DNA from: a virus | Strand: one strand, 5' to 3' | Length of the DNA: 64,000 nt | IMG/VR virus record: IMGVR_UViG_3300046514_000653 | Coordinates: 1-64,000 of that record | Shown: positions 3,884 through 61,595 of the stretch, one piece after another | How positions within the stretch are numbered: the first letter of the stretch is position 1 | Layout of the letters: each line of letters starts with the position of its first letter | Program-made: the position numbers and the translations under genes | Notes under the pieces: generated by a model | Told to the model about the DNA's origin: nothing | Seen by the model: the letters and a program-made list of their open reading frames with translations, nothing else | Database searches by the model: none

Positions 3884-4011
3884 CCTAGGGACTGCTAGCG
3901 TTCAGCGGTCTCGACTACTTCAGTCTAGATCACTGACCGCTGGGAGACACCTAAGGCTAGTAACTAGAGTTGCTGGCTAGTGAATCCAGAAAGCAAAAGG
4001 AAGATAACCAA

Positions 4012-4308
4012 ATGTCCCAGAACACAAACGGTATGACCTATCAGCAGGCGGCAAAACAAGCATTAGAGATTCAAGATGCATGTAACCTCTCTGGTATCGC
4101 ATTTTCATTCGCCCGCGCGATACAAGCGGTATGCGACGAATCGACCAGATTAGGCAAAGGCACCGATTGGAAAAACACGAATCCGATTGTAACTCTGCAT
4201 TTGCTCAAGATGGCAGAGTTGAACGGATGCGGAAGTACACTCCATTCCAGCTATGATCAGGCGGAAACGGAATGCAGGCAGATTGCAGAATCGGCAGAGG
4301 TGGTCTAG
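4012..4308 (+). CDS. hypothetical protein
   Basis: ATG at 4012 within ORF 3970..4308; AAGGAAG upstream. Confidence 0.7.
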   Translation: MSQNTNGMTYQQAAKQALEIQDACNLSGIAFSFARAIQAVCDESTRLGKGTDWKNTNPIVTLHLLKMAELNGCGSTLHSSYDQAETECRQIAESAEVV

Positions 4309-4310
4309 TG

Positions 4311-4715
4311 ATGACGAAGCAAGAACGGTTTTTTTATGACCAAGCTGGTTACAGCTATGACCCTAAGACGGAGACAGAAAAAACCGGCCGTGAACGTGGA
4401 GCAAAGCATTTAGCCCAAGCGGAGACATACGCGCGGGAACAAGGATGGTACTTTCAATGGGAGCATGAGCAAGAGAGACCGGAAAACGTACTTGGGAAAC
4501 GTTGCACGAAGCGCAAATGCAATGATCCCAAGTGTCCTAACGTTCACTATGGCGCTAACTCCGAGTGGCTATGCTGCATCTTGTTCGATGAACCAGAGGG
4601 AAAGGTACTTAGCTCCCTCGGGATGATAGAAGAGCCAAGTCGAGAGTATCGGCGCGTAGTCGAAGCGGAGTTAGCTTGGGAAGCTATGCCAAATGAAACG
4701 GAGGTGAAAGCATGA
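4311..4715 (+). CDS. hypothetical protein
   Basis: GAGGTG RBS; ATGA overlap with the next gene. Confidence 0.7.
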   Translation: MTKQERFFYDQAGYSYDPKTETEKTGRERGAKHLAQAETYAREQGWYFQWEHEQERPENVLGKRCTKRKCNDPKCPNVHYGANSEWLCCILFDEPEGKVLSSLGMIEEPSREYRRVVEAELAWEAMPNETEVKA

Positions 4716-5383
4716 GTCTCACTCTCAAAGCAATGGAGTCACGCGCGGTCTCCGCCAAATCTGAGATTTTCAACTTTCGCATGGATGGACGCAAAAACTT
4801 TCTCACATGGCACGCGTTCCAACAGGCTGAAATACGCGTGTATGAGGAACAAACCGAACGATACCGCGCGATCGAAGCTAAGACTAAGGACGTGCGACGC
4901 AAGAAACGCGCGCAAAAGGGGTTAGATACCTGCATACGCGCGATAGCTGGAATCATTCGGGACATCCGGTATAACCAGGAAATACGCGCGAAACGCAAGG
5001 AAGATAGAGACGCATGGCAGGCGGAGGGTTGGAGACCGTTGAATGTAATTGACTCTGGTACATTCTCAACACAGCCATGGCCGCTAGAATACGCTGCTAG
5101 CCATGCCAGAAGAGAGCAAGAGACGCTGAAAGCACTAGGGTATGAATCAAGACAGGAATGCCCAGATTATCAAGCGCATCGTATCTATGATTCTTATTGG
5201 GGTACTACCTACAATCAGCCAAGCGGCCATGTGGTCATTCTAGTTAAGGTCGGGACGGAGCTAGAACTAGAATTGGCCAAACGCGCGTACAAACAACAGC
5301 AGGCGGAGTACTGGAAAGCTTTGCACGAAAAGTATAAATGGGATCTGCCGATTCCAGAGACCAGATTAAGAGATTGGAAGTAA
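4712..5383 (+). CDS. hypothetical protein
   Basis: 223 aa; GGAGGTG RBS. Confidence 0.7.
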   Translation: MSLTLKAMESRAVSAKSEIFNFRMDGRKNFLTWHAFQQAEIRVYEEQTERYRAIEAKTKDVRRKKRAQKGLDTCIRAIAGIIRDIRYNQEIRAKRKEDRDAWQAEGWRPLNVIDSGTFSTQPWPLEYAASHARREQETLKALGYESRQECPDYQAHRIYDSYWGTTYNQPSGHVVILVKVGTELELELAKRAYKQQQAEYWKALHEKYKWDLPIPETRLRDWK

Positions 5384-5390
5384 ACAGACC

Positions 5391-5696
5391 ATGAAGCGCA
5401 AACACTTTCTCCAGCTAGCCCATGCAATCCGCCGAATGTTCTCCGATCCGAATGAGGTAAAGTTCACCTCGATGCAACGTACGGCTATCGTCGACAACCT
5501 AGGGTACTTCGCACGCCAGATAACCCCAACATTCGACCAAGTACTTTTTCAGTTCGTTATCGACCATGGAAGAGAGATGAGCGACAACGAACGAGTCAAG
5601 GCAGGGATACCGCCAGCGGGTCGGGACATCAAAGTGCCGATCTATTGCGACTACTGCCAAACAAATCACGTAAGAGACGACAGACACAAAAAGTAG
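5391..5696 (+). CDS. hypothetical protein with C-terminal CxxC..H
   Basis: 101-aa ORF in operon spacing. Confidence 0.65.
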   Translation: MKRKHFLQLAHAIRRMFSDPNEVKFTSMQRTAIVDNLGYFARQITPTFDQVLFQFVIDHGREMSDNERVKAGIPPAGRDIKVPIYCDYCQTNHVRDDRHKK

Positions 5697-5711
5697 AGAG
5701 GACACAAGCAA

Positions 5712-6632: not shown

Positions 6633-6690
6633 CAAAAACGCCAGAGAGTCAATCGGGACATCGGTCCTGGTTTCCTCTCTGGCGTTTTTG
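6633..6690. terminator. probable bidirectional intrinsic terminator
   Basis: 16-bp perfect inverted repeat CAAAAACGCCAGAGAG (6633-6648) / CTCTCTGGCGTTTTTG (6675-6690) right after the early gene block. Confidence 0.75.
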
Positions 6691-6703
6691 CGTTTGGACA
6701 CAA

Positions 6704-6730: not shown

Positions 6731-7347
6731 TAGACGGAGCTAGGACAGCACAGGGCTAGTTACTAGCTGGTCGCTGGCGTCGCACAACTCGCAGGCCAAA
6801 ACCAACGCGTCTAGCGCGCGGGAATAGCAGGCTAGGAGGTCTCTGTACTTGTCCTCTTCCCATGTGGGGAATTCGGCAAGGCAGTCCGACCAGAAAGCCA
6901 GAGAGGATAGACAGTGTTGAATCAGGGGCATAAGTCTCCCTATCGGCAAGGCAGGAGGAAGTCTTTAGGGTGGTCAAAGGGATGATTCCTATGGGGGTAC
7001 ACTCGATTCCGCGCGGTCCGGAAGATAGCCAGCATGGGGCAGGCTGTCGACGCGTCCTAGCGCGTTTTGAAAATCGGCCTGCCATCCAGCTAGTACTTTG
7101 GACTAAGCCAGTACTTTGGGCTGAAAAGTACTCCAGATTAGGAAAGTGGTTTGTAAAAGCACTTTGGACAATAAAGCGAAGGAAAAGCGAAATTGACGTG
7201 AAGAAAAGGCGAAACCGAGAAAATTCAGCAAAAGTTCGGGTGAGTTGATCTTTCCTGGTGCCTGGATTCTGTCAGAAATGAAAACGGGAAAAGGGACAGG
7301 TCAAGGTCTGATTTGAAGGAGGGTCGGGGAGAGAAGTTGGCTAGTTA

Positions 7348-8655
7348 CTAGCCAAGCGTCGACTTCACTGCTTCTTCAAACGACAGGATGAACCGGGCGG
7401 CGAGTGGCGGTACTATAGCGTTTCCATACCCGCGTAGCTTTCCCAGCCTGGAGGGAACGCCAGCAGCCAGCGGGTGAATTCCGGGTTGAGTACGGCGGTA
7501 CTTTCCGTCGAGACAGGGGAGGAGGGTGAAGTAGGACCAGAAGTCGAAGTTGAAAGCAGCTTCGATACGTGAGTCACGAAGCGGTTGTTTCCCGCCTGAT
7601 GTTTGTCCTTCACTGTCGGAGACGTTGGGGAGTTCCAAAGAGCGATTCGAGATTGGTCGATTAGACTGCTCTGTCGATTGTTGCGGGATTTGCGATGAAC
7701 GTCCGGACCGCTCTGACCGTCGCGGGATTGAGGGCTGACCCAGTTTGCGATTAGATGAGCCACTTGGTTGTTGAGCTGCTCCCCCTTCTTGCCGCCACCG
7801 CGGAGGGAGTAGGGTTTGAGATTGGGGAAGCGGAAGTCGCGCTCGGCTGGAGATGCCCAGGAGGCTAGAGCTACTACGTTCTCCAAGCCCACTTGAATCT
7901 TCTTCCCTGCTTTGGATTTCATTGAGATGGTCTGTTCGTGGCTGATTGATCTGCCTCCTGCTGGAACGTTGACTGTCGGCCAGGAGGCGAGCTGGACCTG
8001 CATTGCTATTGGCATCCCCATGCCGTTGCGATTGATCCCTTTGAGCTTGATGCGCTCGCGCCGGGCTAGGAAGGTCTCTAGTCCTTCGCCGTTCTGCATC
8101 ACTGAGGCGTCCGGACTGGTCCAGCCTAAGATCCGCCCCTCCCCAGTACAACCGCTGCCTGATATGCGGCGCGCCGATGCTGTGTGCGCCCAGAACGGCC
8201 GACCCGCAGGCGTAGTCTTCTTCTTCCAGGTTTGTACAAACTCTATCGAGCCAGTGGTGTCCAATGCTTGCCGCAACTTGCTCCCCAAAGACACGGTGAG
8301 GATGCGAGAAAGCGATGAGGCGGAGGAAGTCTGGCCAGAGATCCCGCGGGTCGGCGTGAGCCCGGCGTTTGCCTGCGGTGGAGTAGGGCTGGCAGGGGCA
8401 GGAGCCGGTCCAGACCTGGCGGTCCTCTGGCCAGTTGGCGAGACGGAGCGCGAGCGGCCAGCCGCCGATTCCGGCAAAGAAGTGGACATGGGTGAAATCT
8501 TCAACATCGGTTGATTGTACTTCCTTGATGGAACGAGAGTCAACGAATCCGGCCGGGAGCCGTTTGGCTTTGATGAGCTGACGAAGCCAGTCGGCGCAGA
8601 AGGGATCGTTTTCGTTGTAGTAGGACCAGTGGCGGGATCGGCGGATGTAGGGCAT
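7348..8655 (-). CDS. DNA (cytosine-5) methyltransferase, alpha polypeptide
   Basis: motif I HFFAGIGG, motif IV GSCPCQPYS, motif VI FGEQV, motif VIII PHIRQRLY, motif X LRGYGNAIVP; motif IX missing from this frame. Confidence 0.9.
   Translation of the reverse strand: MPYIRRSRHWSYYNENDPFCADWLRQLIKAKRLPAGFVDSRSIKEVQSTDVEDFTHVHFFAGIGGWPLALRLANWPEDRQVWTGSCPCQPYSTAGKRRAHADPRDLWPDFLRLIAFSHPHRVFGEQVAASIGHHWLDRVCTNLEEEDYACGSAVLGAHSIGAPHIRQRLYWGGADLRLDQSGRLSDAERRRTRDLPSPARAHQAQRDQSQRHGDANSNAGPARLLADSQRSSRRQINQPRTDHLNEIQSREEDSSGLGERSSSSLLGISSRARLPLPQSQTLLPPRWRQEGGAAQQPSGSSNRKLGQPSIPRRSERSGRSSQIPQQSTEQSNRPISNRSLELPNVSDSEGQTSGGKQPLRDSRIEAAFNFDFWSYFTLLPCLDGKYRRTQPGIHPLAAGVPSRLGKLRGYGNAIVPPLAARFILSFEEAVKSTLG
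7413..8507 (-). CDS. putative methyltransferase beta polypeptide in an overlapping frame (motif IX plus five repeated modules)
   Basis: frame is open 7413..8807; ends LNPEFTRWLLAFPPGW (motif IX-like); start uncertain (ATG at 8507 or 8489, or further downstream). Confidence 0.65.
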   Translation of the reverse strand: MLKISPMSTSLPESAAGRSRSVSPTGQRTARSGPAPAPASPTPPQANAGLTPTRGISGQTSSASSLSRILTVSLGSKLRQALDTTGSIEFVQTWKKKTTPAGRPFWAHTASARRISGSGCTGEGRILGWTSPDASVMQNGEGLETFLARRERIKLKGINRNGMGMPIAMQVQLASWPTVNVPAGGRSISHEQTISMKSKAGKKIQVGLENVVALASWASPAERDFRFPNLKPYSLRGGGKKGEQLNNQVAHLIANWVSPQSRDGQSGPDVHRKSRNNRQSSLIDQSRIALWNSPTSPTVKDKHQAGNNRFVTHVSKLLSTSTSGPTSPSSPVSTESTAVLNPEFTRWLLAFPPGWESYAGMETL

Positions 8656-8800
8656 GGAAAAGGACAGGATAGCACAGAAGTGAGGTTCCACACACAAGCA
8701 CCCGTGATCATCTTTTTAGATGAGAAGAAAGATAGAAGATATAACAATAGAGATAATAGAGGAGTACAGACAAAAGATAAAAGGAGGGTAGGTGTTTTTA

Positions 8801-8851: not shown

Positions 8852-9157
8852 ATGAGATACAACGAATACACACATGTTCGACTGCGCTATGATCAGCACC
8901 AGATTATAAAGAGACTCTCCGCATTTTGGCGAAAACCGCTAAATGTCACTATAGCGCTACTTTTGGAGGAGCCTCTTAAAGACGCAGTCAGAGTCATGAA
9001 TCTGTGCCAGGAAATCGACAATTGGCCGGAGCAGACTATTGGGTCGATTACTGTAACAAACCCGGCCGAAGCGTACGAGGTAAATGACACGGAGACGCAG
9101 GAGTTGGAGGAACGGATAAAGCAAACGATGAAGCAGAGGATGAAGGGGTCACAATGA
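8852..9157 (+). CDS. hypothetical protein, possibly ribbon-helix-helix
   Basis: ATG at 8852; YTHVRL strand followed by two helices. Confidence 0.55.
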   Translation: MRYNEYTHVRLRYDQHQIIKRLSAFWRKPLNVTIALLLEEPLKDAVRVMNLCQEIDNWPEQTIGSITVTNPAEAYEVNDTETQELEERIKQTMKQRMKGSQ

Positions 9158-9561
9158 GCAAAGAGAAGCGGAAGCAGGCCGGGCGGATCATCTGGATGGA
9201 CGCGCAGGTCCATGCAGAGCTGAAGGTCATCGCTGCGCACCAGGGGGTGACGATGCAGGATATTGTCAACATCGCTGTGCAGTCGTACGTGAGTGAAGCC
9301 AGGGAAGAGATGTTGAAGGATCTGGCGAAGGAAGCGGCAGCGTCGAGAGTAGTAGCCGCGGCTGAGAAGATCGTGGTGCAAACTGTGACTGAGAGCAAAG
9401 AGGAGAGAAGCGAGAAGTTCAACACCGAGCTGGAACGACGCCGGAGGAATATGATCGAGAAGTTCGCGCAGTTCGCTAAGTTCAGCAAGAAGACTTTTGC
9501 GGATACTGAGGCGGTGTGGGAAGCCAATGAACGGAAACTGATGAAAGAGACCGGCTGGTAA
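9154..9561 (+). CDS. ribbon-helix-helix DNA-binding protein
   Basis: RIIWMDAQVHAELKVIAAHQGVTMQDIVNIAVQSY fits the RHH pattern. Confidence 0.65.
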   Translation: MSKEKRKQAGRIIWMDAQVHAELKVIAAHQGVTMQDIVNIAVQSYVSEAREEMLKDLAKEAAASRVVAAAEKIVVQTVTESKEERSEKFNTELERRRRNMIEKFAQFAKFSKKTFADTEAVWEANERKLMKETGW

Positions 9562-9589
9562 CTAGCGCTAACGTCCGCACGTTTTGTTG

Positions 9590-9619: not shown

Positions 9620-9682
9620 CTTCCTGTGATCCCAATTGTAGTTCTTGTCAAACGCTACTGAACTGCGGTATGATCTCCACCG

Positions 9683-9976
9683 ATGGGAAAAGAAACCAAA
9701 ATCAAACGAGCGTTGATCCGCAGCCTAGCGGACGGGAAGCGTCGCACCGGAGCGCCGGCAAGTGGATTGTTTCCGGAAGTCAGTCGAGTCGCGCTGGCTC
9801 AAGAGCTGCAGGGGCAGGGGTTGCAGATCGACGAGTCGACCATCTCTTACATCCTCTCTGGCAGGCATAGGCCGAAGTATGATGTGCTGACCCGGATGGC
9901 CGGGCAGTTGGGGGTGGGTGTGGAAGAACTGCATCAGTTGCTCGAATCTAAAAGAGCCGAGCGGCAAAGAAGCTGA
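9683..9976 (+). CDS. XRE/Cro-like helix-turn-helix regulator
   Basis: SRVALAQEL...IDESTISYILSGRHRPKYDVLTRMAGQLGVGVEEL. Confidence 0.85.
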   Translation: MGKETKIKRALIRSLADGKRRTGAPASGLFPEVSRVALAQELQGQGLQIDESTISYILSGRHRPKYDVLTRMAGQLGVGVEELHQLLESKRAERQRS

Positions 9977-10033: not shown

Positions 10034-11263
10034 ATGAGCGATAAGGAGCAAGCAATGAGCAAAGGCGTCGGAACCAATCCAGTGCCACCGAAAGCAGAAG
10101 AAGATAATCCGCGGTATGTCGACATGGACGTTGATCCAGCAGACGTACTGATCGATCCGGATATTAAGGCGCTGCGTCAGTGGACGGGTGAGAGCAGGCA
10201 GGAAGGCACGATTAAGGAACTGGCTGACTCGATCATCGAGACCGGACAGTTGCAGCGCTGCGTCGCCTGGATGACGCCGGATGGGATTAGTTTGATCATC
10301 GGCAATCGGCGGCTGGAAGCGGTGAAGCTGGCGCGGGAAGAGGGCAATATGGATATCTTCCTGGAGATCAAGATCGACAATGAGGTGCAGAGCAAAGAGC
10401 AGGCCGTGAAGATGGCCATGGATGAGAACCGGCGACGCGAGCAGTTCACCGAGTTCGAGCTTTGCACGCACATCCCGTTTGTACGTACGTTGCTGAAGGC
10501 GGAAGGCAAGAAGGGGACTAAACAGGTCGCGGATTTCATCGGCATCGATCCGGCTACGGTGACGCAGTACGAACGTCTGCTGGCCGCGCCTCAGGAGTTG
10601 CAGGACAGTGTGCGGACAGGGCGGATGACTGTCACGGCCGCGCTGGAGACGTTGACCAGCAAGCCGGAGACGGTCAAGCAGGTGTCGGAGACTGCGCATA
10701 AGGCGGCAGAGGCGCGCGCGGAGAAGCAGACCAAGGAGAAGGAGAAGAAGGAAAAGGAGAAGGCGGCGAAAGAAGGGGCCAAGCCGAAGAAGGTCACTCC
10801 GGTTAAGCCGGTTACTACGACTACGGACGTGCGCCGGGCTCAGCGGAAGGTCGCTGGCGCGTTGAGTAAGCCTAAGGCTCCACGTGGGACCGAGTGGGCG
10901 GACTTCTTCCTGGAACGTAGCGGACCGGCCAATCCGCCGATCCTTGCGCAATTCGCCAGCATCATGGCTGACTGGGGTAGTGCGAAAGCCACGGACGCGC
11001 AGGCGGAGGAAGCCTGGAAGACGATTGTGCAGGCCATGAAGTCGGCGGGGATCGCGGACAAGCCCGCGCCGGAGTTGAAGGAGAAGGGGCCGGAGGGGAA
11101 GAAGAAGGCGGAGAAGGCAGTGAAAGCGCCGAAAGCTCCTAAGGCACCTGCACCTAAGAAGGCCGCGGTGAAGACGGCGGCGAAGAAGGCTCCTGCAAAA
11201 GTGGCGGCGAAGAAAGCGCCTGCGGCCAAGAAGACTCCGGTCAAATCGGCCAAAAAGAAGTAG
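10034..11263 (+). CDS. ParB-like protein (ParB/Srx N-domain, HTH, Lys/Ala/Pro-rich histone H1-like tail)
   Basis: IKELADSIIETGQLQ, IIGNRRLEA (arginine patch), MDENRRRE, HTH TKQVADFIGIDPATVTQYERLL; about 60-aa KAP/AAKK tail. Confidence 0.85.
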   Translation: MSDKEQAMSKGVGTNPVPPKAEEDNPRYVDMDVDPADVLIDPDIKALRQWTGESRQEGTIKELADSIIETGQLQRCVAWMTPDGISLIIGNRRLEAVKLAREEGNMDIFLEIKIDNEVQSKEQAVKMAMDENRRREQFTEFELCTHIPFVRTLLKAEGKKGTKQVADFIGIDPATVTQYERLLAAPQELQDSVRTGRMTVTAALETLTSKPETVKQVSETAHKAAEARAEKQTKEKEKKEKEKAAKEGAKPKKVTPVKPVTTTTDVRRAQRKVAGALSKPKAPRGTEWADFFLERSGPANPPILAQFASIMADWGSAKATDAQAEEAWKTIVQAMKSAGIADKPAPELKEKGPEGKKKAEKAVKAPKAPKAPAPKKAAVKTAAKKAPAKVAAKKAPAAKKTPVKSAKKK

Positions 11264-12849: not shown

Positions 12850-13046
12850 ACGGACAGGACCGTGGACAGCCGATTGAGATCAGTAACGGCGCCAATCTGA
12901 AGACCCGGCATGCAGACGGGAAAGTGTATCTGGAAGTCTGGATGGGCGGCGTGATCGTGACTGAGTATGAGCTGGAGCCAAAGGAAGCGATGCGGCTTTC
13001 TTTGGAGCTGGAGTATGGGGAGTTGGGTGGAGGGATCATTTTGTGA
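12846..13046 (+). CDS. hypothetical protein
   Basis: overlapping start/stop coupling at both ends. Confidence 0.6.
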   Translation: MNGQDRGQPIEISNGANLKTRHADGKVYLEVWMGGVIVTEYELEPKEAMRLSLELEYGELGGGIIL

Positions 13047-13525
13047 AGCTGCGCAAAGGAAACATGTTCGAGTCGCGCGCCGAGCTAGTGCTAGTAACTA
13101 CCAATGCCATGGTAAGAGCCAATGGAAGTCTAGTCATGGGCAGAGGAGCGGCGAAGGAGTTGGTGGATAGGTTTCCAAGGATCGACCGGGACTTCGGGTC
13201 GATACTGCGTATGTCCAGTCTTGTCGGCAAGACTTACGGTGTGATGATTCTCGGAAAAAACTTCCCACTGAAAGATCTAGATTCTATTTTCCACTGCAAA
13301 TTTGGAGTCTTCCAGGTCAAGTATCACTGGAAGGACAAAGCGAGTTTGAACCTGATCCACAATTCAGTCGAGCGGCTGTGTGAATTGATCGACGGAAATT
13401 CGGCACAGAGTTATAGAATCTCTCTGAACTTTCCGGGGATTGGGAATGGAAGGTTGACGAGAGAGCAGGTGATGCCGTATATCGAGAAGCTTCCGGACAA
13501 CGTAACTGTCTGGGAAAAAGAATAA
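13043..13525 (+). CDS. macrodomain (Appr-1''-p processing / ADP-ribose-binding) protein
   Basis: KGNMF, VTTNA, VMGRGAAKEL, FQVKYHWK, FPGIGNGRL. Confidence 0.85.
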   Translation: MKLRKGNMFESRAELVLVTTNAMVRANGSLVMGRGAAKELVDRFPRIDRDFGSILRMSSLVGKTYGVMILGKNFPLKDLDSIFHCKFGVFQVKYHWKDKASLNLIHNSVERLCELIDGNSAQSYRISLNFPGIGNGRLTREQVMPYIEKLPDNVTVWEKE

Positions 13526-16876: not shown

Positions 16877-17092
16877 ATGAAGCGGACATTGCGGGAGCAA
16901 TCATTAAAGACGCGCTCCGAACGTTCAGCGGCGGCAATTTACAGGTATAGGAATCTTACGAACGATAAGGATTCCACGTCTATATTTTTCGCGCTTCACA
17001 ATGCCGTTATGGCAGGTTGGCGCATGGCCCAGCGGGACCTAAAGAAAGGCGCTCCTGTAGTCACTACCCTAAAGAAGAATAAGAAAAACTAG
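16877..17092 (+). CDS. hypothetical protein
   Basis: 71 aa; GGGAG RBS. Confidence 0.55.
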   Translation: MKRTLREQSLKTRSERSAAAIYRYRNLTNDKDSTSIFFALHNAVMAGWRMAQRDLKKGAPVVTTLKKNKKN

Positions 17093-17116
17093 TAACTAGG
17101 AATTCAAATCCCACCC

Positions 17117-20695: not shown

Positions 20696-21088
20696 ATGAA
20701 AGCTAAGACCTGGAGATGTTTCCATTGCAACGAAGTCTTTCGCTCGCGCAAATCTGCATGGCTGCACTTCGGGCCGGATGACGATTGTGAGAAGCTCCCA
20801 CCTGCTTGCATCGATCCTCTGCGTAAGGATGAAAAGACCCGGTTGTCAGAGTTAAGAGAGGCGCAAGATTACGCTTTTCAATGCCAGGAAAAGGCTAGTG
20901 AGTTTGAAGACAAATTGGATGATGCAATGCGCGAGCTGGCTGAGTTCAAGCGCCTCTCCAACTGCTCTTCCTCAAACGAGCTGCGCAACTGGCTAGACAT
21001 TCAAAACGGACGCGTCGCTGTAGCCGATGCGCTCACAGAAGGTTTTAAAAAGGCCGACCCAAGATTGGCTGCGAAGATCATAGGATAG
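20696..21088 (+). CDS. Zn-finger plus coiled-coil protein
   Basis: WRCFHCNEVF....AWLHFG. Confidence 0.7.
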   Translation: MKAKTWRCFHCNEVFRSRKSAWLHFGPDDDCEKLPPACIDPLRKDEKTRLSELREAQDYAFQCQEKASEFEDKLDDAMRELAEFKRLSNCSSSNELRNWLDIQNGRVAVADALTEGFKKADPRLAAKIIG

Positions 21089-21758: not shown

Positions 21759-22580
21759 ATGGAATCTACAATGACGATGCGGTTGAACCTTAACGATGTA
21801 GTTCGTGTGAAGCTGACCGGCAACGGCATGCTTGGTTGGCTGGCGCACTGGAAGAAAGTGGGGATGACTGCACCAAAGCCGGATGCGTACCGCTACTTTC
21901 ATATGCAGTTCTGGTATCTATGCCAGATCTTTGGTCATGATCTGCAGTCAAGGAAAACACAGCTATTCGTGCAGAACGAGATCTGCGTCGACTACCCGGC
22001 CGAGTTAGTTTCTGCTCCGATGCTAGTAACTAGTGCGTTACAGGAAGTCATTCGCAACTACGACATTCTGGTTCAAAACGACGATGATATCTGCCGCGAC
22101 TTGGATATTGGACAGCACGGCAAGTATTTCATCCACAGTATCGACGAGGCTCGCCGGGTACTAAAAAGTAAAGTGAAGAGTGAGACGGGCAAGAGCGAAA
22201 AAGACACGCTCACTAACACTGTCTACTGCGAACAGCCTGAAGATACACCGCGTAATCCACCTAAATTTACCTGGAGTGGATTTCAGCCTGCAAGCGGACG
22301 TGTAGATCTGGACTCCCCGTACAACACCGATCTGCTCTCCTGTGACTGCCACATCAGTTGCTGGCAGCATCACGCACAGAAGCGTAATTGGCCCTATCTT
22401 ATGGTTTTTGGTCTTCCTGATTTCAGACACCAGGATATGGAAGACATCGTACCGTACGGCGCGTATGTGATGACTAACAACCCTACACGTTACTTGATCC
22501 ATCCGCGGTACTTTCAGAGCGCAAAGGATGGAATGCGAGAACGGCGTCATCGATACGGTAAGTCAGCGGGGAAGCTGTAA
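21759..22580 (+). CDS. hypothetical multi-domain protein
   Basis: 273 aa; N-terminal LNDVVRVKLT..G...MQFWYL..IFG phage-type domain. Confidence 0.65.
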   Translation: MESTMTMRLNLNDVVRVKLTGNGMLGWLAHWKKVGMTAPKPDAYRYFHMQFWYLCQIFGHDLQSRKTQLFVQNEICVDYPAELVSAPMLVTSALQEVIRNYDILVQNDDDICRDLDIGQHGKYFIHSIDEARRVLKSKVKSETGKSEKDTLTNTVYCEQPEDTPRNPPKFTWSGFQPASGRVDLDSPYNTDLLSCDCHISCWQHHAQKRNWPYLMVFGLPDFRHQDMEDIVPYGAYVMTNNPTRYLIHPRYFQSAKDGMRERRHRYGKSAGKL

Positions 22581-22614
22581 GGAAAGAATCAAGGAAAGTA
22601 ATCAAGGATTAGGG

Positions 22615-35303: not shown

Positions 35304-35304
35304 T

Positions 35305-36545: not shown

Positions 36546-36585
36546 TTTAAGTAGCTCCTTTGTGTGCTCTAGTTACTAGCTGTCC

Positions 36586-43615: not shown

Positions 43616-46336
43616 TTATTGCCTCACGCTCAAGAAATTCCCTGTGTAAGCCTGCCCGGCAGTGCCGGTAGTGTAGATCGAGAATGTATGTGTTCCAGAT
43701 CCCATGGCGATGTTGTTGGAAACTGTCGGGTGGATTGCAAACTGTCCGGTGTTGTCAGTCGCCCAACTTGCGCACGATGCAAGAGTTGTACAGTACCCGG
43801 CCGGTGCCTTCATAGTGATGGTCTGCGCGTTCGTTACACCCGCGTTGTTGCAGTAGGTAAACGTCCTTTGATATGCATACCCAGCCGCAGCAGAGATGGT
43901 CTGTACTTGAAACACGAGGGTGGCATCGACATAGAAGAGAATGTTTCCTGCGGCTGTACCAGTGTTGGTATCGATGCCCATTTCCATGTTCATGCAATTG
44001 CCGGATGATCCACCCGCAGCCATCGCCGGCACTCCGGTTACTTCCATTAAGGGGATTGCTGATCCTGTTTGCGTGACCAACGTATTGCCAGTCGTGGAAG
44101 AGAACGATCCCCCACCCCCACTCATACACCCCATAGTTTCTAAACACACACGACCAGTACCGAGCGCTCCGTTGCTCAAATCAGTCGCCGCCATCTGATC
44201 GCCAGACGCAACGCGCGGCATCGCATGACGGTTAGGAGACGCGTTTCCAAAATAGACCAGGGTATGAGCCGCAGAGTCAAAGCACCAGAACCCCTGGCCG
44301 GAGATGGTGGTAGTCGGGCATGCCATCTCAGGGCCGGTATCTGACTCCCCAGTTAAATCGTTCGTGCATCCGGTACCTCGAATGGTCCCATCCGGCATCA
44401 CCTGCATACCCTGTGTGGTAGTGATGCCGTTAGCTAGAATAATCGATGAGTCGCACGTCGCGACCGCACTTCCACCGAACGCTACGGTGTATGTCGGTCC
44501 CATCGTCGGCTGGATGAAGTTGATATAGAAGATCGCGCCTCCGCCTGAGGGAACGCTTGCAAACGTTACCGAGGTGATGTTAACGGAAAGCGTGCAGCCG
44601 ATCACCGTGGTAGACTTCCCGCCCACGTCGGCCAGAGAGATCGTTGGAGTGGCGCCGCATGCGTTTGTAGCGCCTGTCGATCCAGTAAACACGCTTACTC
44701 CACTACCGCCGCCGCCCGCACCTGCAGCCGCCCATCCGGTGTTGACGGTACAAGCTCCGCTCTCTTTCTTATAGAGCGTGGTATTGGTGCCTCCGTCGAT
44801 CCGCATGTAGATAGAGCCGATGCAACCGGCCTTGCTGCCTTCTGGTGTGCCGCTGCCTGTGTAGATGCCAGGACCGCCGCTCAATTGAAGCTCGGGCGCA
44901 TCGTCGGAAGTATTCACCTTGTCTGAATTGATAAGGTGCTTGATCTCACCGTTGTTCGAAACTTCTCCACTCTGGTTGTTCTTGAATGCCGCGGTGTAGC
45001 CACCAACGTTAACGCCGGTGATCTCCCAATTAGCTAGAGTCCCTCCGCCCGCTTCTTCATAAAGCGCGTAGGTGCCAGAGCCGATTGTGTTGATCGCGGT
45101 GAGCCCATTGACAATCAGATTGAATGGATGACCACCTGAGGATCGAGGAGTGAAGTCGATGACATGCTGGTGATTCGTACTTCCGCTCGTTGCCTCAAAC
45201 TTAGTGTTGATAAACGTCGCAATATTAGACCCTCCAGTGTCTCCAGTATCTTGTACAATCTGGATCGGATTAACGCCAGAGTTGTCGATCTGCGTATCGA
45301 CCATAAGCATCACATTCGCCCCGACCAGATCGTTTAGGAATACCGCGCCTCCATTCTGCCCACCAAAGGTGCAGGAGTAGCAGGAGAAGTTAACCACCTG
45401 GTTGTCGAGTTCAAGACAGAAGTTCTTGCAGTTCTGAAACTGAACATGCCGGTATGTATTTTGATACCCGCCATTCCATTGTTTGACCAAGGACGGAGCG
45501 CTGGCGTTGTTGGTTGCATTCCCGTCCAACGTACAATTCTCCATTTGAAGGAAGTGCGCGTATCCATTCGCCATGAAGTAAGCAGAGGTGAAGGAGAAGA
45601 GCGCGGTGTTGCGCGAGTTGCCAAGCTTGATTACAGAAGCGAAGTTTACACCTTCCGCATTGTCGCCAGAAGCAGCGCAGACGAAGTGAAGATTTGCGTT
45701 AAATTCAATCGGCGTTACAGTCTCAGTAAACGTACCCGGTCCGATGTTCACAGTGCCTGTGTGTGACGGTACTCCGCCAACTGAGAGAGGAAGAGCGGCT
45801 ACGGCCGCGGCGACGGTGAGCTTTGCGGTCGGCCAGGATGTACCAGGGTTGGAATCGTTACCAGAGGCGGATACGTACATGATCGTAGAGTCGACGAGTC
45901 CGCCGGGAGGGCCGGTAGCTCCAGCAAGACCGGTAGCGCCAGCGCCTCCGTTGCTGTTCAGCACGACTAGGACGTTGCTGGAGCTGGAGTAGGTGACGTG
46001 GACAGATGTGAAGGAATCGCGCACGAGCACGCAAGGAAGAGCAGTGAGGTTGCCAGTGATCTCTCCAGTGGTGATCCCAGTGCCTGTCCAGCATTGAGCC
46101 ACAAGAGTGTTGAGCAGGGTTTGAGTGCTAAGAGCAAGAGCAGTGATGTCAATCGCTCCGGAGTTTGTAGCCGGTCCTGCAATAGACGCGTGAACGTTCG
46201 ACGCTCCCACTCCCACCCCACCTCCAGTGGGAGGAAAGGCAAATTGCGCGTGGAGCGCAGAGGAAAGCAGGAGGAAGCAGAAGCAGATGCTAGTAACTAG
46301 CTGGACTACAAACGATCCAAGGCGGCGGCGATTCAT
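43616..46336 (-). CDS. tailspike-like beta-helix protein with signal peptide
   Basis: MNRRR-hydrophobic-ALHA|Q; short GXY collagen run; YVSASGNDSNPG...TVAAAV..GTVNIGPGTF; GSGTPEG....IGSIYMR.DGG..TTLY.KESG. Confidence 0.8.
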   Translation of the reverse strand: MNRRRLGSFVVQLVTSICFCFLLLSSALHAQFAFPPTGGGVGVGASNVHASIAGPATNSGAIDITALALSTQTLLNTLVAQCWTGTGITTGEITGNLTALPCVLVRDSFTSVHVTYSSSSNVLVVLNSNGGAGATGLAGATGPPGGLVDSTIMYVSASGNDSNPGTSWPTAKLTVAAAVAALPLSVGGVPSHTGTVNIGPGTFTETVTPIEFNANLHFVCAASGDNAEGVNFASVIKLGNSRNTALFSFTSAYFMANGYAHFLQMENCTLDGNATNNASAPSLVKQWNGGYQNTYRHVQFQNCKNFCLELDNQVVNFSCYSCTFGGQNGGAVFLNDLVGANVMLMVDTQIDNSGVNPIQIVQDTGDTGGSNIATFINTKFEATSGSTNHQHVIDFTPRSSGGHPFNLIVNGLTAINTIGSGTYALYEEAGGGTLANWEITGVNVGGYTAAFKNNQSGEVSNNGEIKHLINSDKVNTSDDAPELQLSGGPGIYTGSGTPEGSKAGCIGSIYMRIDGGTNTTLYKKESGACTVNTGWAAAGAGGGGSGVSVFTGSTGATNACGATPTISLADVGGKSTTVIGCTLSVNITSVTFASVPSGGGAIFYINFIQPTMGPTYTVAFGGSAVATCDSSIILANGITTTQGMQVMPDGTIRGTGCTNDLTGESDTGPEMACPTTTISGQGFWCFDSAAHTLVYFGNASPNRHAMPRVASGDQMAATDLSNGALGTGRVCLETMGCMSGGGGSFSSTTGNTLVTQTGSAIPLMEVTGVPAMAAGGSSGNCMNMEMGIDTNTGTAAGNILFYVDATLVFQVQTISAAAGYAYQRTFTYCNNAGVTNAQTITMKAPAGYCTTLASCASWATDNTGQFAIHPTVSNNIAMGSGTHTFSIYTTGTAGQAYTGNFLSVRQ

Positions 46337-46436
46337 ATTTGACTCTCCTAGTAACTAGCGCTAATCGAGTCTTCCCGCCGCCGCGAAGAGACCTGGCGTT
46401 CACTTATCCGTACCAGTTTAACGCATCTAGGAAAGA

Positions 46437-58907: not shown

Positions 58908-59291
58908 CTAGTTACTAGCCATCGAGCGAATCTTGAGATTCACGATACCTGCGTTTGTCACGTAGGCTGTCGTCACGTCGCCGGCAAAGGGACAGCGAGC
59001 GATTGCATCAGTGGCGAGAGTCCAGATCAAGACTTGATTGGCGACGAGGGCAATGGTGTCCTGCGGAGCACTGCCGCTAGGATTGTTAGTGAAGATTGTG
59101 CAAGGACCGTCAGCAGAGATGACGATGCTCTTCAGCTTTGAATGCGTAAAGGCCAGTTGAATCTGAGTGTTCGCGCCGACAGCAACCTGCTTGTCCAGGT
59201 TGTGCGCCACCTCAGAGGTGATTGTTTCGTTAAAGGAGAGACCCGAAGCGCTCTCGTCCTTGTACGTCCTGGTCACTGTGTGCGTCGGCAT
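58908..59291 (-). CDS. probable virion structural protein
   Basis: 127 aa; beta-rich; AAGGAG RBS; after tail tube. Confidence 0.65.
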   Translation of the reverse strand: MPTHTVTRTYKDESASGLSFNETITSEVAHNLDKQVAVGANTQIQLAFTHSKLKSIVISADGPCTIFTNNPSGSAPQDTIALVANQVLIWTLATDAIARCPFAGDVTTAYVTNAGIVNLKIRSMASN

Positions 59292-59319
59292 GACTCAATT
59301 CTCCTTATTGACTAATGGA

Positions 59320-60321
59320 TTACTGGCAGATGTCGGTGAGATCGTTCTTACTGGTGAACGTCAAGATCGTACTGTCGGAAGTCTTGAACTGGATGGCTGC
59401 ATTGACAGAGACTGCGACAAGCCCTTCTTCGCTCGTGCGGTCAACAGAAGCCAGAGAGACCTGAGACAGATCCCATTGAACGAAGTGCGTTGCGTCCTTC
59501 TGCAGTTTCAGCGACGCTGTGCCGGGCGTCTGTGCGATCAAAGCGGCCAGTTCAGGGCTGGTTGCTTTCAGAAAAGCTGTGATCTGCAGAGAAGGGACAC
59601 GAGGACCGAAGAAGATTGTGCTTCCTACAGCCGCGCCGTCCTGCACACCGGAGCCAGGTCTGTACATCAGACGTTCGAGCAGGTTGTTCTTCCACGAGAT
59701 TGTACCGGAGAGGATGGAAGAGTCGGCGACGTAATCATGGCCGAGGAGCGAGAGGGAGAGAGTGGCCGATAGAAGTTCGTTCTCAGCCAGTGCCGCGGGA
59801 AGAGAGACACCGGATGGGAAGACGTGGCGTCCGGTACCGAGCAGGGTGACTGAGGTGGTCGAGTCGTTGCGGGTTGGACCAAAGGAGAAGGTGGTCGAGA
59901 CTTCCTCTACCTGCACGCCGATCAGCGCTTCGTCAACCGCCATCCCTCCACCTTCCGCGAGCTGCGCGACGAAGGAGGTGTAAGGGAGTTCGAGCGAGAC
60001 GCCAGGGTCCTGAGGGACGGCGGTGTAGAGAGACGAGGCGAGCCCCACGTTGCCGAGCGCATAGCACCATGCCAGTGCGGTGAATTCGGCCGTGGTCACC
60101 TTCTGAAACCGGTGCTGGAAAGCCCAGTTATCCAGATAGACCTTGGAGATGAATTCATTCCCTTTACCGATCTCATTCGCATCGGTCTCGGTGACAAGCC
60201 GGATGGTATCGACTTCCTGCGAGAGCTGACGGAATCGCTTAATCCCGGTAGAGATGGTATGGGAGTCGACTTGTTTCGCCGACCCGATTCCGAATGCGTA
60301 CGCTTGTACTCTGTTAGGCAT
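59320..60321 (-). CDS. major tail (tube) protein
   Basis: 333 aa; AAGGAG RBS; high GC3; between tail terminator and chaperones. Confidence 0.75.
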   Translation of the reverse strand: MPNRVQAYAFGIGSAKQVDSHTISTGIKRFRQLSQEVDTIRLVTETDANEIGKGNEFISKVYLDNWAFQHRFQKVTTAEFTALAWCYALGNVGLASSLYTAVPQDPGVSLELPYTSFVAQLAEGGGMAVDEALIGVQVEEVSTTFSFGPTRNDSTTSVTLLGTGRHVFPSGVSLPAALAENELLSATLSLSLLGHDYVADSSILSGTISWKNNLLERLMYRPGSGVQDGAAVGSTIFFGPRVPSLQITAFLKATSPELAALIAQTPGTASLKLQKDATHFVQWDLSQVSLASVDRTSEEGLVAVSVNAAIQFKTSDSTILTFTSKNDLTDICQ

Positions 60322-60377
60322 GGAAGTGATTTCTCCTTAGCAAACAACTAATCAACTGTAGCAGATAGTAAGAACGT

Positions 60378-60872
60378 TTACGAGTCCCCTTGTTCGGGAA
60401 TGGACACGAGAATTTTGAAGTAGTCCTGCTCTTGACTATCTGTCTGCCCCTGGATCGTAGGAGTATCACAAGGGAGAAGTTCAGGGAGTAAAGAAGCTGT
60501 ACGAAAGTTTTGGTTAAATGCACTTGGAACAGTCAATGGGTTATTCATGAGCATCCAAGCAATGTGCAAAGGCGAGGAGTGAGTTTGTGCTACGTTCCCG
60601 CCTTCTGCTGCATTGTTAGGACGAATGAAGATCTCCAGTCGATGCTTCCAGCGGCCGTAACCAGAGATAGAGCCTTCAAGAAGATCGAGATATGCAACCA
60701 TCACTGTACCAGCCGGCTGCTGTTCTATCGCGCGGGTAAGGGAGTTGTCGACACCGTAGAGATACTGATGGGCATAGATATTGTTCACGTCGCCACCAAC
60801 TTCACGCACTACATCATTGATTGACTGTAGAGAAGTGATGACAGAGGCAAGGACAAGATCTGGATCAAGCAT
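60378..60872 (-). CDS. putative tail terminator protein
   Basis: 164 aa; position upstream of tail tube. Confidence 0.6.
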   Translation of the reverse strand: MLDPDLVLASVITSLQSINDVVREVGGDVNNIYAHQYLYGVDNSLTRAIEQQPAGTVMVAYLDLLEGSISGYGRWKHRLEIFIRPNNAAEGGNVAQTHSSPLHIAWMLMNNPLTVPSAFNQNFRTASLLPELLPCDTPTIQGQTDSQEQDYFKILVSIPEQGDS

Positions 60873-60882
60873 GGGAGTCTAC

Positions 60883-61242
60883 TTAATCCCTCCAGATTGG
60901 AACAGGGACTGTCTGTCCGCGGAGTTTATGAGCGCAGTCCATGAGGAATTGGATCTGCCCGTCCTTTACGTAAATGTGACAGATACGTGCCGGGTCGTCC
61001 TTAAAGCAGACGAGTGAAGGCAGGAATGTAGGTTTGGTTAACGACCCATTCCAGGTCCATTGTGGACGTTGTGCCGCGTCTCCGCCGACATGATAGGGAT
61101 GATCAAAGCCGCAGCCGGGACAGTGGAAGACAAAGATCCTCTGCCCTCCATGCTTCGGATATTCGTGTATTACATCCTCTGCGCTTGTCTTCTGTTCTAT
61201 TACTGGTTCCATGGCAGATTCCTTGTCTTCAACTTCATCCAT
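60883..61242 (-). CDS. DUF6527-like Cys/His metal-binding protein
   Basis: FHCPGC...H, WTWNGS..KPTF.PS, CHIYV.DG.IQFL.DC.H.L.GQTV. Confidence 0.75.
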   Translation of the reverse strand: MDEVEDKESAMEPVIEQKTSAEDVIHEYPKHGGQRIFVFHCPGCGFDHPYHVGGDAAQRPQWTWNGSLTKPTFLPSLVCFKDDPARICHIYVKDGQIQFLMDCAHKLRGQTVPVPIWRD

Positions 61243-61556
61243 CCTCCGCCGACCTGATCCGCCACCACCTCATTCACGTCGTAATCTACTCCATTGAGAG
61301 TAGCTGTGTCGCCTTTGCGCGGGCGCCGAGATAAGGCAAGGAATGTAGAAGAAGCAATCCACAAGTGCAAAAGAGCAGACCCAGGATTTGACCCAGGTAC
61401 ATAATCGTCTTGAAATTGCGGGTCAGATTGAGTGGCAATGACATTGAAGTCGGCTCCATTAGGACGCGGGTGGATGATGATGGAGAAGTCCGAAACAGCG
61501 GATTCAATGGCCGCATCCGCATCCTGAAATAATTGTGCGAAGTTGGATAGAGCCAT
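61200..61556 (-). CDS. head-tail joining protein (lambda gpFII-like)
   Basis: P.KGDT.TLNGV.Y.V.EV..D..GG..MKL. Confidence 0.7.
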   Translation of the reverse strand: MALSNFAQLFQDADAAIESAVSDFSIIIHPRPNGADFNVIATQSDPQFQDDYVPGSNPGSALLHLWIASSTFLALSRRPRKGDTATLNGVDYDVNEVVADQVGGGWMKLKTRNLPWNQ

Positions 61557-61595
61557 GGTGTAGCTGCACTCGCGGCTGGTTACTAGCCGCGCAGA

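Follow-up and report, generated by a model that had tools for sequence, protein, structure and literature searches.

A private palindrome dispersed across a soil phage genome, a putative docking site with an orphan ParB-type protein as candidate reader

Why does an uncultured soil phage (IMG/VR record IMGVR_UViG_3300046514_000653, 76,302 bp in full) carry the same short palindrome, CTAGTWACTAG, from one end of its genome to the other, and which protein, if any, reads it? In the window, the stretch of 64,000 nucleotides that we analysed, a motif scan found 10 perfect copies, against 0 in 100 dinucleotide-preserving shuffles, and 18 copies with at most one mismatch, against 0.31 expected. A preliminary description had listed 10 perfect and seven one-mismatch copies; every perfect coordinate was verified by the scan and all seven others are real, the scan adding 32355. 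When the scan and the k-mer check were extended to the whole record, 13 perfect copies and a total of 24 with at most one mismatch were found (expected ~0 to 0.3); among the 8- to 11-mers of the genome none was more over-represented than CTAGTWACTAG, and no other 5-N-5 palindrome recurred. The sites, which carry no strand of their own, are as follows.

3957..3967, perfect (CTAGTAACTAG), intergenic, between 3350..3883 and 3970..4308
6756..6766, perfect, in a 948-bp non-coding region, beyond a terminator-like hairpin at ~6640-6695
7341..7351, perfect, within the 19-bp palindrome TTGGCTAGTTACTAGCCAA (7337-7355), where the C5 methyltransferase gene (minus strand) has its 3' end
9555..9565, one mismatch (CTGGTAACTAG), covers the TAA stop of the ribbon-helix-helix (RHH)-like gene 9154..9561, ~80 bp upstream of a sigma-70-like promoter (9645-9674) that precedes the XRE and ParB-like genes
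13091..13101, one mismatch (CTAC), in-frame L-V-T-T, gene 13043..13525
17089..17099, perfect, covers the TAG stop of 16877..17092, next start codon 17 nt on
22023..22033, perfect, in-frame L-V-T-S, gene 21759..22580
22807..22817, one mismatch (CTAC), in-frame L-V-T-T, gene 22528..23034
28437..28447, one mismatch (CTGG), in-frame L-V-T-S, close to the 3' end of the DUF2130 gene 27321..28544
29884..29894, perfect, in-frame L-V-T-S, close to the 5' end of 29815..30501
32355..32365, one mismatch (TTAG), within the DNA polymerase A gene 31659..33116
36569..36579, perfect, between genes, 23 nt before the start of minus-strand gene 35934..36545
46290..46300, perfect, in-frame L-V-T-S, codon 13 of 43616..46336 (minus strand)
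46348..46358, perfect, between genes, 11 nt before the start of minus-strand gene 43616..46336
49062..49072, one mismatch (CTGG), within 48279..52580 (minus strand)
54644..54654, one mismatch (GTAG), in-frame L-V-T-T, tape-measure gene 53137..56949 (minus strand)
58908..58918, perfect, covers the TAG stop of 58908..59291 (minus strand)
61576..61586, one mismatch (CTGG), intergenic, within the 21-bp near-palindrome CGCGGCTGGTTACTAGCCGCG (61571-61591), 19 nt before the start of minus-strand gene 61200..61556
69427, 71554 and 76221, perfect, outside the window (full record)
64788, 66775 and 68667, one mismatch, outside the window (full record)

Conservation extends into the flanks: G stands at -1 in 17 of the 24 sites and C at +1 in 17 of the 24, which in effect makes the site the 13-mer GCTAGTWACTAGC. 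As previously described, the palindrome is longer at 7337-7355 and at 61571-61591, the latter copy with one G/A mismatch. Sites occur once per ~3 kb genome-wide, genes included, and are spaced more evenly than chance (CV 0.66 versus 0.94 under random placement, P = 0.03). The central W shows no orientation bias, being A on the coding strand in 14 of 22 cases. This bears on a comparison drawn in the preliminary description, that with the stoperators of mycobacteriophages. As far as PMC4351075 recounts them (L5 gp71, citing Brown et al. 1997), the stoperators of Cluster A are 13-bp sites in some 20-35 copies, genome-wide and often in short intergenic gaps like those of this phage, but they lack symmetry, follow the direction of transcription and bind a monomeric immunity repressor for lysogenic silencing. 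Since the phage sites are palindromic, and the phage showed neither lysogeny genes nor, among the ORFs scanned, an integrase, the stoperator reading does not fit.

Thirteen of the 24 sites are not fully inside a gene, though genes cover 90% of positions. The junction bias that had been noted is thus upheld, with p = 7e-8 naively and p = 0.0018 once two closed reading frames are allowed for. Overlaps with stop codons were also verified in 9154..9561, 16877..17092, 58908..59291 and the methyltransferase frame 7348..8697. In the right arm, 9/13 sites lie at late-gene junctions, 11 to 53 nt before start codons, and 6/11 in-gene copies fall within the terminal 10% of their gene. The gene-end bias of intergenic and in-gene copies alike hints at a role in gene expression rather than simple coating. 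Inside genes, the motif had been expected to read only as Leu-Val-Thr; this holds for all fully in-gene perfect, CTAC/GTAG and TTAG copies, but not for 49062, a CTGG variant whose own frame lacks stop codons and is not the Leu-Val-Thr frame. Of the 13 Leu-Val-Thr tripeptides, seven use the spelling CTA-GTW-ACT, where 0.12 would be expected, and one more reads CTG-GTT-ACT-AGC. Selection therefore targets the DNA rather than the peptide, as had been argued.

Would such selection require a protein? That the motif instead works as a hairpin of RNA or single-stranded DNA, in processing, translation control or as a hairpin promoter, is very improbable. Many sites do stand 11-23 nt before start codons, several without a clear Shine-Dalgarno sequence, some are embedded in the longer palindromes noted above, and a G-T wobble is kept on the plus strand in 5/5 CTGG variants. 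However, for the 3/5 that fall in the minus-strand arm, a C-A mismatch would result in the RNA; the 13-nt stem is weak (-2.0 to -3.5 kcal/mol), and 31-nt windows around the sites average -5.7 kcal/mol, compared with -4.2 +/- 2.7 for random windows. Conservation also covers the sequence and not merely its pairing, and neither the in-gene copies nor the presence of copies on both arms requires an RNA role. We likewise see only a slight chance that the motif marks recombination junctions, travels as a passenger of mobile cassettes or serves a host factor. A 3,972-bp cassette (71541-75513) that is missing in strain X5 begins 13 nt from site 71554, and a 61-bp replacement in strain X4 begins 2 nt past site 64788. 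Given intergenic indels, though, we estimate that two such matches arise by chance about 1 time in 8; the remaining indel ends are not near sites, and ten copies sit in frame within conserved genes. The dispersed repeats of Cluster O mycobacteriophages, discussed below, are also reported to be uninvolved in indels (PMC4351075). The occurrence of another private motif at this junction in a relative further speaks against a host factor, the junction being that upstream of TerL described below.

The motif is probably a protein docking site. The following genes encode candidate readers or otherwise bear on the question.

9154..9561, plus strand, candidate reader 3, 135 aa, with an N-terminal RHH-like segment
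9683..9976, plus strand, candidate reader 2 or KorA-like partner, small XRE-type HTH protein (HTH_31, E = 7e-7), directly upstream of the ParB-like gene
10034..11263, plus strand, candidate reader 1, orphan ParB/Noc/KorB-family protein, 409 aa
7348..8807, minus strand, C5 DNA methyltransferase in two overlapping frames, 1.2 kb from the ParB-like gene, with perfect sites 6756 and 7341 3' of it
75493..76167, HTH-bearing small terminase (TerS), site 76221 lying 53 nt upstream

Judged by its sequence, the product of 10034..11263 is a true member of the ParB/Noc/KorB family, in agreement with the earlier ParB-like call. It contains GNRRLEA and ENRRR boxes (GxRRxxA, ENxxR), an HTH and a Lys/Glu linker, and its family profile matches structures of ParB, Spo0J, Noc and KorB over the N-domain and HTH with E = 1e-23 to 1e-9. 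Its tail is rich in Lys, Ala and Pro and resembles histone H1. No ParA-binding motif was found in the protein and no ParA among the phage ORFs scanned. As a reader of the palindrome it is the best candidate, tied to the motif by circumstantial evidence, and we rate its chance as somewhat short of even. The predicted recognition helix is nearly invariant throughout the ParB family, which sits badly with ParB as the reader of private motifs.

Private the motif is among the relatives scanned: no copy occurs in 80 loci of TerL relatives (866 kb) or in the first 16 of 80 zinc-finger loci, drawn from roughly 200 related or comparison viral records. The closest relative found, G001 (a 26.8-kb fragment; capsid protein 65%, TerL 52%), has a palindrome of its own, GTAGGWCCTAC, with five perfect and five one-mismatch copies in 26.8 kb; the two motifs have the frame xTAGxWxCTAx in common. 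Both genomes bear their own palindrome a few nt upstream of the TerL start, and finding another palindrome of like format at a homologous junction speaks for a protein reader that co-evolves. No ParB was seen in G001, in the 56% of that genome available. The preliminary description had proposed to check whether motif and ParB gene co-occur across relatives, and the one case available speaks against it: L022 (9.8 kb), the sole syntenic ParB relative with usable flanks, keeps the order XRE-ParB-helicase and an identical PATVTQ helix, but in its 9.8 kb has no CTAGTWACTAG-like site and no recurrent palindrome, where ~3 would be expected, and carries a clustered iteron array instead. Among other phages, G019 has ~50 copies of TGCAACNNGTTGCA and G020 17-18 copies of TGTAAACGTTTACA, both genome-wide. 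A ParB_N-fold protein occurs in 3/3 phages with a genome-wide palindrome (G000, G019, G020) versus 2/12 other records searched (Fisher p ~0.02), an association that mixes protein types, since the G019 and G020 proteins have no ParB HTH in Pfam and one of them, in G020, is fused to a methyltransferase. ParB types differ among the three. G015 and G024 also encode ParB_N proteins, a ParB HTH being present in one of them, but show no genome-wide palindrome.

The sites may instead be operators for another phage protein, be it the RHH-like, XRE or TerS product or an unrecognised one, acting on transcription at junctions as roadblocks, insulators or late-gene controls; we consider this unlikely, though it has several observations on its side. 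Each CTAG box is a 4-bp palindrome in its own right, and the centres of the two lie 7 bp apart, a spacing also compatible with two RHH dimers, in the way that the omega repressor occupies heptads. Sixteen unrelated IMG/VR contigs contain the motif inside (CTAGTWA)n heptad arrays, next to small HTH or TerS-like genes. Site 9555 runs over the stop codon of the RHH gene itself, the TerS of G001 has an HTH different from that of this phage, and the late-gene junction sites, the TerL junction position kept in G001 and the copies at gene ends would suit such an operator. Against this, the assignment as RHH is weak (Antitox_RHH, E = 0.003, below cut-off), TerS homologues also occur in palindrome-free relatives, and dozens of dispersed sites are known, among such proteins, only for repressors of temperate phages, whereas this phage showed no lysogeny genes. 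Nor do the sites coincide with sigma-70-like promoters found in the phage, and junction control needs neither deep in-gene copies nor regular spacing.

The closest published case is that of Cluster O mycobacteriophages, which have dispersed 17-bp dyad repeats (TGTTCGGNNNCCGAACA, 34 copies in Corndog) and, without integrase or parAB, encode the ParB-like gp90 (PMC4351075). With a probability of 87%, Corndog gp90 aligns to the family profile of 10034..11263. The two cases are alike in being non-temperate siphoviruses with genomes of ~70 kb, over the whole of which some 25-35 invariant repeats of dyad symmetry are spread; ~40-55% of these lie between ORFs and many more at gene ends, mostly away from predicted promoters, and other phages lack the repeat. 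They also share the lack of integrase and parAB, an orphan ParB-like protein, a C5 methylase whose frame is ambiguous and a large-terminase gene set apart from that of the small subunit. The repeats differ in form (11-13 bp with a single-base centre here, 7-3-7 in Cluster O), no nucleotide or close protein similarity is detectable between the phages, and their hosts probably differ. The comparison identifies a type of repeat system rather than a mechanism.

A further idea is that the sites serve DNA modification or anti-restriction, as recognition or loading points that direct the C5 methyltransferase, alone or with the ParB-fold protein, over the phage genome. Resting on neighbourhood and analogy, this seems quite improbable. 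In its favour are the two perfect sites 3' of the methyltransferase gene with the ParB-like gene nearby, the ParB_N-methyltransferase fusion of the palindrome-bearing G020, and the conjunction in Cluster O of dyad repeat, ParB-like protein and HaeIII-like methylase (PMC4351075). ParB-fold-methyltransferase fusions are moreover reported to be common in phages (PMC12704722). There is, however, no known reason why a methyltransferase target should show thousandfold enrichment or be built into genes.

For a ParB-type reader, plasmid and chromosomal relatives offer models. The OB operator is a 13-bp palindrome present in 12 copies on the IncP-1 plasmid RK2. Noc of Bacillus subtilis, an orphan ParB paralogue, marks DNA via dozens of dispersed palindromic NBS sites, not for ParA segregation but for a chromosomal function in cell division, with membrane binding by an N-terminal helix. 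This phage has likewise an orphan ParB-type protein and palindromic sites dispersed over a replicon; no membrane-binding N-terminal helix or cell-division feature was seen in the phage protein. The specificity of ParB and Noc is treated in PMC7383237. KorB is a CTP-dependent clamp that loads at OB operators on RK2 and acts at a distance by sliding (PMC11790492), which we propose for the phage ParB by analogy. Alike are a ParB-family CTPase-fold protein, a palindromic operator at many dispersed sites of one replicon, and a small HTH gene just upstream, KorA for KorB and the XRE gene here. In contrast, the KorB operon includes a ParA (IncC) and KorB has a further role in partition, OB sites are linked to promoters, and the histone-H1-like tail is a feature of the phage protein and not of KorB.

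Taken as a whole, the reading of a phage-private docking palindrome whose most likely reader is the ParB-type 10034..11263 product has, in our estimate, a probability of roughly 0.42. From protein binding at the site and ParB as the binder to CTP use, sliding and their consequence, we infer the following course. (G)CTAGTWACTAG(C) would be the docking site of a dimeric, sequence-specific, phage-encoded DNA-binding protein, most likely the partner-less ParB/KorB/Noc-type product. Its HTH would recognise the 13-bp palindrome, its CTPase-fold N-domain would turn it into a closed clamp able to slide away from the site, as KorB does on RK2, and its Lys-rich tail may grip non-specific DNA. Phage DNA, and not host DNA, would thereby be coated or marked, and expression at gene junctions, compaction or protection of the phage genome may be affected.

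The ten perfect copies of the palindrome CTAGTWACTAG reported in the preliminary description were all recovered at their positions, and no match appeared in 100 dinucleotide-preserving shuffles of the window. The one-mismatch copies, of which at least seven had been described, were likewise all found, together with one more at 32355, giving 18 sites with at most one mismatch in the window where 0.31 are expected. The IMG/VR record behind the window is rated complete by CheckV. Over its full 76,302 bp (phage G000), there are 13 perfect copies and, with one mismatch allowed, 24 in all (roughly one every 3.2 kb), compared with the at least ten copies of one short palindrome across a replicon by which dispersed operators of the KorB-OB type are recognized. 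CTAGTWACTAG is the sole 5-N-5 palindrome that recurs in the genome, and a k-mer enrichment check by order-3 Markov scan agreed, with sub-words of the motif ranking first at each k from 7 to 11. As G precedes the motif in 17 of the 24 sites and C follows it in 17, the true site is a 13-mer, GCTAGTWACTAGC; beyond this G and C, no conserved sequence was found around the sites. The mismatches are themselves of recurrent types (CTGG five times, CTAC/GTAG three times and CTAA/TTAG twice). Searching the literature for the motif string returned primers only.

The sites are spread over a genome built of two arms, whose main features are the following.

1-34 kb, plus strand: left arm with early and replication genes (helicase, ERCC4 nuclease, UDG-exonuclease, DNA polymerase A, DUF2130 protein, RHH-like, XRE and ParB-like proteins), with a C5 methyltransferase on the minus strand
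9154..9561, plus strand: RHH-like protein, candidate reader of the site
9683..9976, plus strand: XRE protein, candidate reader
10034..11263, plus strand: ParB-like protein, candidate reader
20696..21088, plus strand: C2HC zinc-finger/coiled-coil protein of 130 aa
33953-34726, minus strand: protein with a class-3 lipase domain, at the arm junction
34-76 kb, minus strand: right arm with a lambda-like head module (HTH small terminase, gpA-type large terminase, lambda-family portal, S49 protease, gpE-type capsid protein), a tape-measure protein and large tail proteins
75493..76167: small terminase (TerS), candidate reader

Pfam and PHROG scans of about 55 ORFs gave no integrase match, and no tRNA was found in the phage genome. 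In both arms of the window the plus strand has positive GC and AT skew, the right-arm genes being on the minus strand; with skew of the same sign and gene strands opposite, the skew is not simply set by the direction of transcription. The lipase-domain protein, at a position expected for lysis genes, is reminiscent of mycobacteriophage LysB esterases, a possible hint that the outer layer of the host is unusual. The first plus-strand operon ends in a hairpin of at least nine pairs at 6640-6695 (GCCAGAGAG...CTCTCTGGC) with a T-run after it. On the 3' side of the hairpin, at 7090-7170, AGTACTTTGG occurs twice along with two related words (AGTACT and ACTTTGGAC), and the 948-bp non-coding stretch with the AGTACTTTGG copies contains two perfect sites. 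Metagenomes with the phage come from rhizosphere and soil, and public relatives of its large terminase (TerL) carry the labels Bryobacteraceae or Acidobacteriota MAGs. Among cultured phages, the left arm had no megablast match and the ParB-like protein no tblastn match, and the best TerL match is 37% identical. Single-protein searches of IMG/VR with the ParB-like protein, the product of 59320..60321 and TerL found no close relatives.

The view that selection acts on the DNA rather than on the encoded peptides was borne out by codon choice and by placement. In the analysed gene set, 7 of the 13 Leu-Val-Thr tripeptides are spelled CTA-GTW-ACT, against 0.12 predicted by codon usage, and an eighth is spelled CTG-GTT-ACT-AGC. 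Thirteen of the 24 sites do not lie wholly in a gene, whereas 90% of positions are genic (p = 7e-8), and the junction bias is still seen (p = 0.0018) once the two frames, of three, that the motif closes are taken into account. Copies inside genes fall within the first or last tenth of the gene in 6 of 11 cases. Site spacing is more even than under random placement (CV 0.66 vs 0.94, P = 0.03), and the single long gap, of 9.7 kb, spans ORFs of 2171 and 906 aa. Overall, we put the probability that the sites form a protein docking system under DNA-level selection at roughly 80%.

Several other roles for the sites were considered and rejected. In a comparison covering sigma-70-like promoters, no site overlaps the matches at 8801, 9645, 15449, 21722, 26334 and 33388; the promoter-like match at 9645-9674 has site 9555 about 80 bp to its 5' side. 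Start codons follow the sites at distances anywhere from 2 to 53 nt, too variable for a promoter of fixed geometry. Terminator-like hairpins and sites do not coincide, so that a role in intrinsic termination was discarded. As RNA, the 13-mer reaches only -2.0 to -3.5 kcal/mol, and the folding stability of 31-nt windows at the sites is barely above that of random windows. N4-like hairpin promoters were dismissed in view of the lambda-like head module, the tape-measure protein and the absence of any match to a virion RNA polymerase. The analogy with stoperators drawn in the preliminary description breaks down on both symmetry and lifestyle. Cluster A stoperators are asymmetric and oriented with transcription, whereas the G000 site is a perfect palindrome without orientation bias, 14 of 22 sites having A in the centre when read on the coding strand. 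Stoperator phages are temperate, with an immunity repressor and an integrase or parABS, whereas scans of about 55 ORFs of G000 detected neither integrase nor ParA.

The closest published case is the repeat of the Cluster O mycobacteriophages, itself without explanation, and the G000 sites are of that kind. Cluster O genomes have 34 dispersed 17-bp dyad repeats and a ParB-like protein, gp90, with no integrase or parAB (PMC4351075). In G000, too, an invariant dyad repeat occurs in dozens of copies genome-wide, both between and inside genes, and is private to the phage (compare PMC4351075). The Cluster O repeat differs in sequence from that of G000, and the only likeness by sequence is a remote profile match of gp90, which aligns with the profile of the ParB-like family at 87% probability.

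A motif scan of related phages found no copy in 80 IMG/VR loci (866 kb) gathered by TerL alignment. The closest relative found, a 26.8-kb fragment (G001) with 65% identity in the capsid protein and 52% in TerL, carries a different word, GTAGGWCCTAC, in five perfect and five one-mismatch copies; the reversed control word occurs once. The two words have the frame xTAGxWxCTAx in common, the differences being at positions 1/11 and 5/7. Each phage has one site in the short gap just 5' of the TerL start (13 nt in G000, 5 nt in G001) and another at the 5' end of the portal gene. An altered sequence at the same position is as expected from a co-evolving protein-site pair. It also speaks against a host factor as the reader. 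Eleven further relatives in the morphogenesis module, searched as entire records (seven of them at least 90% complete), have no genome-wide palindrome, and none of the left-arm genes of G000 is common to them. One of them (G007, 73.6 kb, without a ParB) has GATGCATGCATC eight times within 5 kb (L106 7415-12440), a regional, operator-like cluster that contrasts with the genome-wide pattern.

Strain contigs from four other soil runs revealed variation close to two sites. A variant in run X5 is without 71541-75513 (L021:11541-15514, beyond the window), a 3,972-bp, three-gene cassette between TerS and TerL, which makes this block a recent indel; the missing block starts 13 nt from site 71554. In a variant from run X4, 61 bp of the protease-decoration gene gap (64801-64861; L021:4801-4861) are replaced by 15 other bases, the replacement beginning 2 nt after site 64788. 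As other indel ends are not near sites, this proximity was not counted as evidence.

Among the candidate readers, the ParB-like assignment made in the preliminary description was strengthened by a 40-member family profile, which matches the structures of ParB, Spo0J, Noc and KorB (E = 2e-23 to 1e-9). The alignments pass through the GxRRxxA box, the ENxxR box and the HTH, and that with M. xanthus ParB covers positions 63-255. The product of 10034..11263 has GNRRLEA (GxxRxxA, box II) at residue 90 and ENRRR (ENxxR, box III) at 131; with the single sequence, the Pfam matches to ParB_N (E = 0.009) and HTH_ParB (E = 5e-4) were both below cut-off, the latter by little. HMMER against 1.8 billion representatives returned 1149 relatives, 36 of them below 1e-30, and a C-terminal Lys/Ala/Pro tail is common to the protein and its relatives. 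No predicted protein has a deviant Walker A motif (KGGxGK[ST]), Pfam scans gave no ParA family match, and the ParA-binding motif (L/F/I)G(K/R)G(L/F/I) is absent from the ParB-like protein. By its N-terminal ParB fold, boxes II and III and HTH, the protein belongs to the ParB/Noc/KorB family; the ParA and ParA-binding motif of a ParABS partition system were not found. Because the family profile matches and GNRRLEA and ENRRR are present while the ParA-binding motif is absent, the protein is an orphan ParB as PMC12704722 uses the term. Two ParB-family alignments were too diverse for a pattern scan, and a 5-sequence alignment was used; it had no match in IMG/VR or GTDB genomes and, in JGI metagenomes, matched L022 and L023 only. 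Logan/NCBI contigs of 63.7 kb, 74.9 kb and 25.7 kb carry a ParB homologue and a TerL homologue together. GTDB genomes, plasmids and phages gave no match to the homologue on the 74.9-kb contig (P0007), and the contig of another homologue, P0167, is absent from IMG/VR.

This ParB is our best single guess for the reader, a tentative choice, made on circumstantial association, at somewhat less than even odds. With two dozen copies of an odd-centred, 13-bp palindrome scattered over the genome, the arrangement is similar to KorB-OB (PMC11790492), and evenly spaced sites suit a clamp that covers DNA by sliding. The Cluster O combination of dyad repeats with gp90 also speaks for ParB. Among records picked for homology to TerL or the zinc-finger protein, without regard to palindromes, both phages besides G000 that have a genome-wide palindrome encode a ParB_N-fold protein: G019 (L281-L286) has a protein of 242 aa and some 50 copies of TGCAACNNGTTGCA in 110 kb, and G020 (L287-L290) has a ParB_N-methyltransferase fusion and 17-18 copies of TGTAAACGTTTACA in 68 kb. 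Such a protein occurs in 2 of the 12 remaining searched records (Fisher p about 0.02, G000 included); Pfam ParB_N misses the ParB of G000 itself, so that its negatives are weak, whereas the family profile A1 detects it. G019 and G020 are unrelated IMG/VR phages. Against ParB, the ParB_N proteins of these two phages have no ParB HTH in Pfam, one of them being the methyltransferase fusion, and the sole syntenic ParB relative with flanks (L022, a 9.8-kb metagenome locus with the order XRE-ParB-helicase) has no CTAGTWACTAG-like site. The L022 ParB nevertheless retains the PATVTQ helix, and a clustered ACTGGCAC iteron array takes the place of dispersed sites. In addition, the putative recognition helix is nearly invariant across the ParB family, another phage (G015) has a ParB with a ParB HTH yet no palindrome, and no ParB was seen in the 26.8-kb fragment of G001. 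The non-coding block upstream of the L022 ParB relative (L022:588-833) holds two 8-mers, GTGCCAGT and ACTGGCAC, four times each and inverted about the 19-bp perfect palindrome TACACCTACGGTAGGTGTA, and looks like an origin or centromere.

The form of the site would also fit tandem ribbon-helix-helix dimers, with two CTAG boxes 7 bp apart as in omega-type heptads. Scanning IMG/VR for two motif copies 35-65 nt apart yielded 16 unrelated contigs in which the motif lies within (CTAGTWA)n heptad arrays adjoining small HTH or TerS-like genes, and a class of proteins reading CTAG at 7-bp spacing therefore probably exists. In G000, site 9555 contains the end of the RHH-like gene, although the RHH assignment of this gene is weak, and a site lies 53 nt upstream of the TerS gene. 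The arrays of the 16 contigs (L005-L020, GC 28-64%; for example, L014:4446-4502, L013:3436-3520, L009:7033-7204 and L019:12184-12510) are non-coding and often paired around an AT-rich spacer. With small HTH (excisionase or MerR-like) or TerS-like neighbours, they look like operator or pac-type arrays of a CTAG-reading protein. The zinc-finger protein was a further candidate, being the sole non-structural, non-lysis protein common to G000 and G001, with two finger differences between them that both fall at canonical recognition positions. It was set aside as reader because homologues 60-71% identical occur in otherwise unrelated phages without a recurrent palindrome (GC 33-58%). The conservation of this protein (60-72% identity in unrelated phages) is far above that of any other gene of G000.

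In its fullest form, the ParB reading would have a partner-less CTP-switch clamp of the ParB/KorB type, with a histone-like tail, load at about 24 private palindromes and spread over the whole chromosome of a lytic, non-plasmid phage. The phage would so mark itself against host DNA for compaction, protection, methylation or timed late-gene expression, and reader and sites would co-evolve fast enough that the closest relative found has a different word at the same junction. We regard this complete scheme as rather unlikely. Dispersed dyad repeats of lytic phages were described in the Cluster O paper of 2015 and have stayed without an explanation, and orphan ParB-CTPase proteins are common in phages, with no assigned job. 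The pairing in G000 is compact, with one 13-bp site in 24 copies and three or four candidate readers no more than 2 kb apart, and G001 provides a natural relative whose site at the corresponding junction is altered. Should the ParB link prove true, CTP-dependent clamp loading would extend from plasmid and chromosome maintenance to viral whole-genome marking. The value of the finding lies in the class of phages combining a palindrome with a ParB-fold protein more than in G000 alone.
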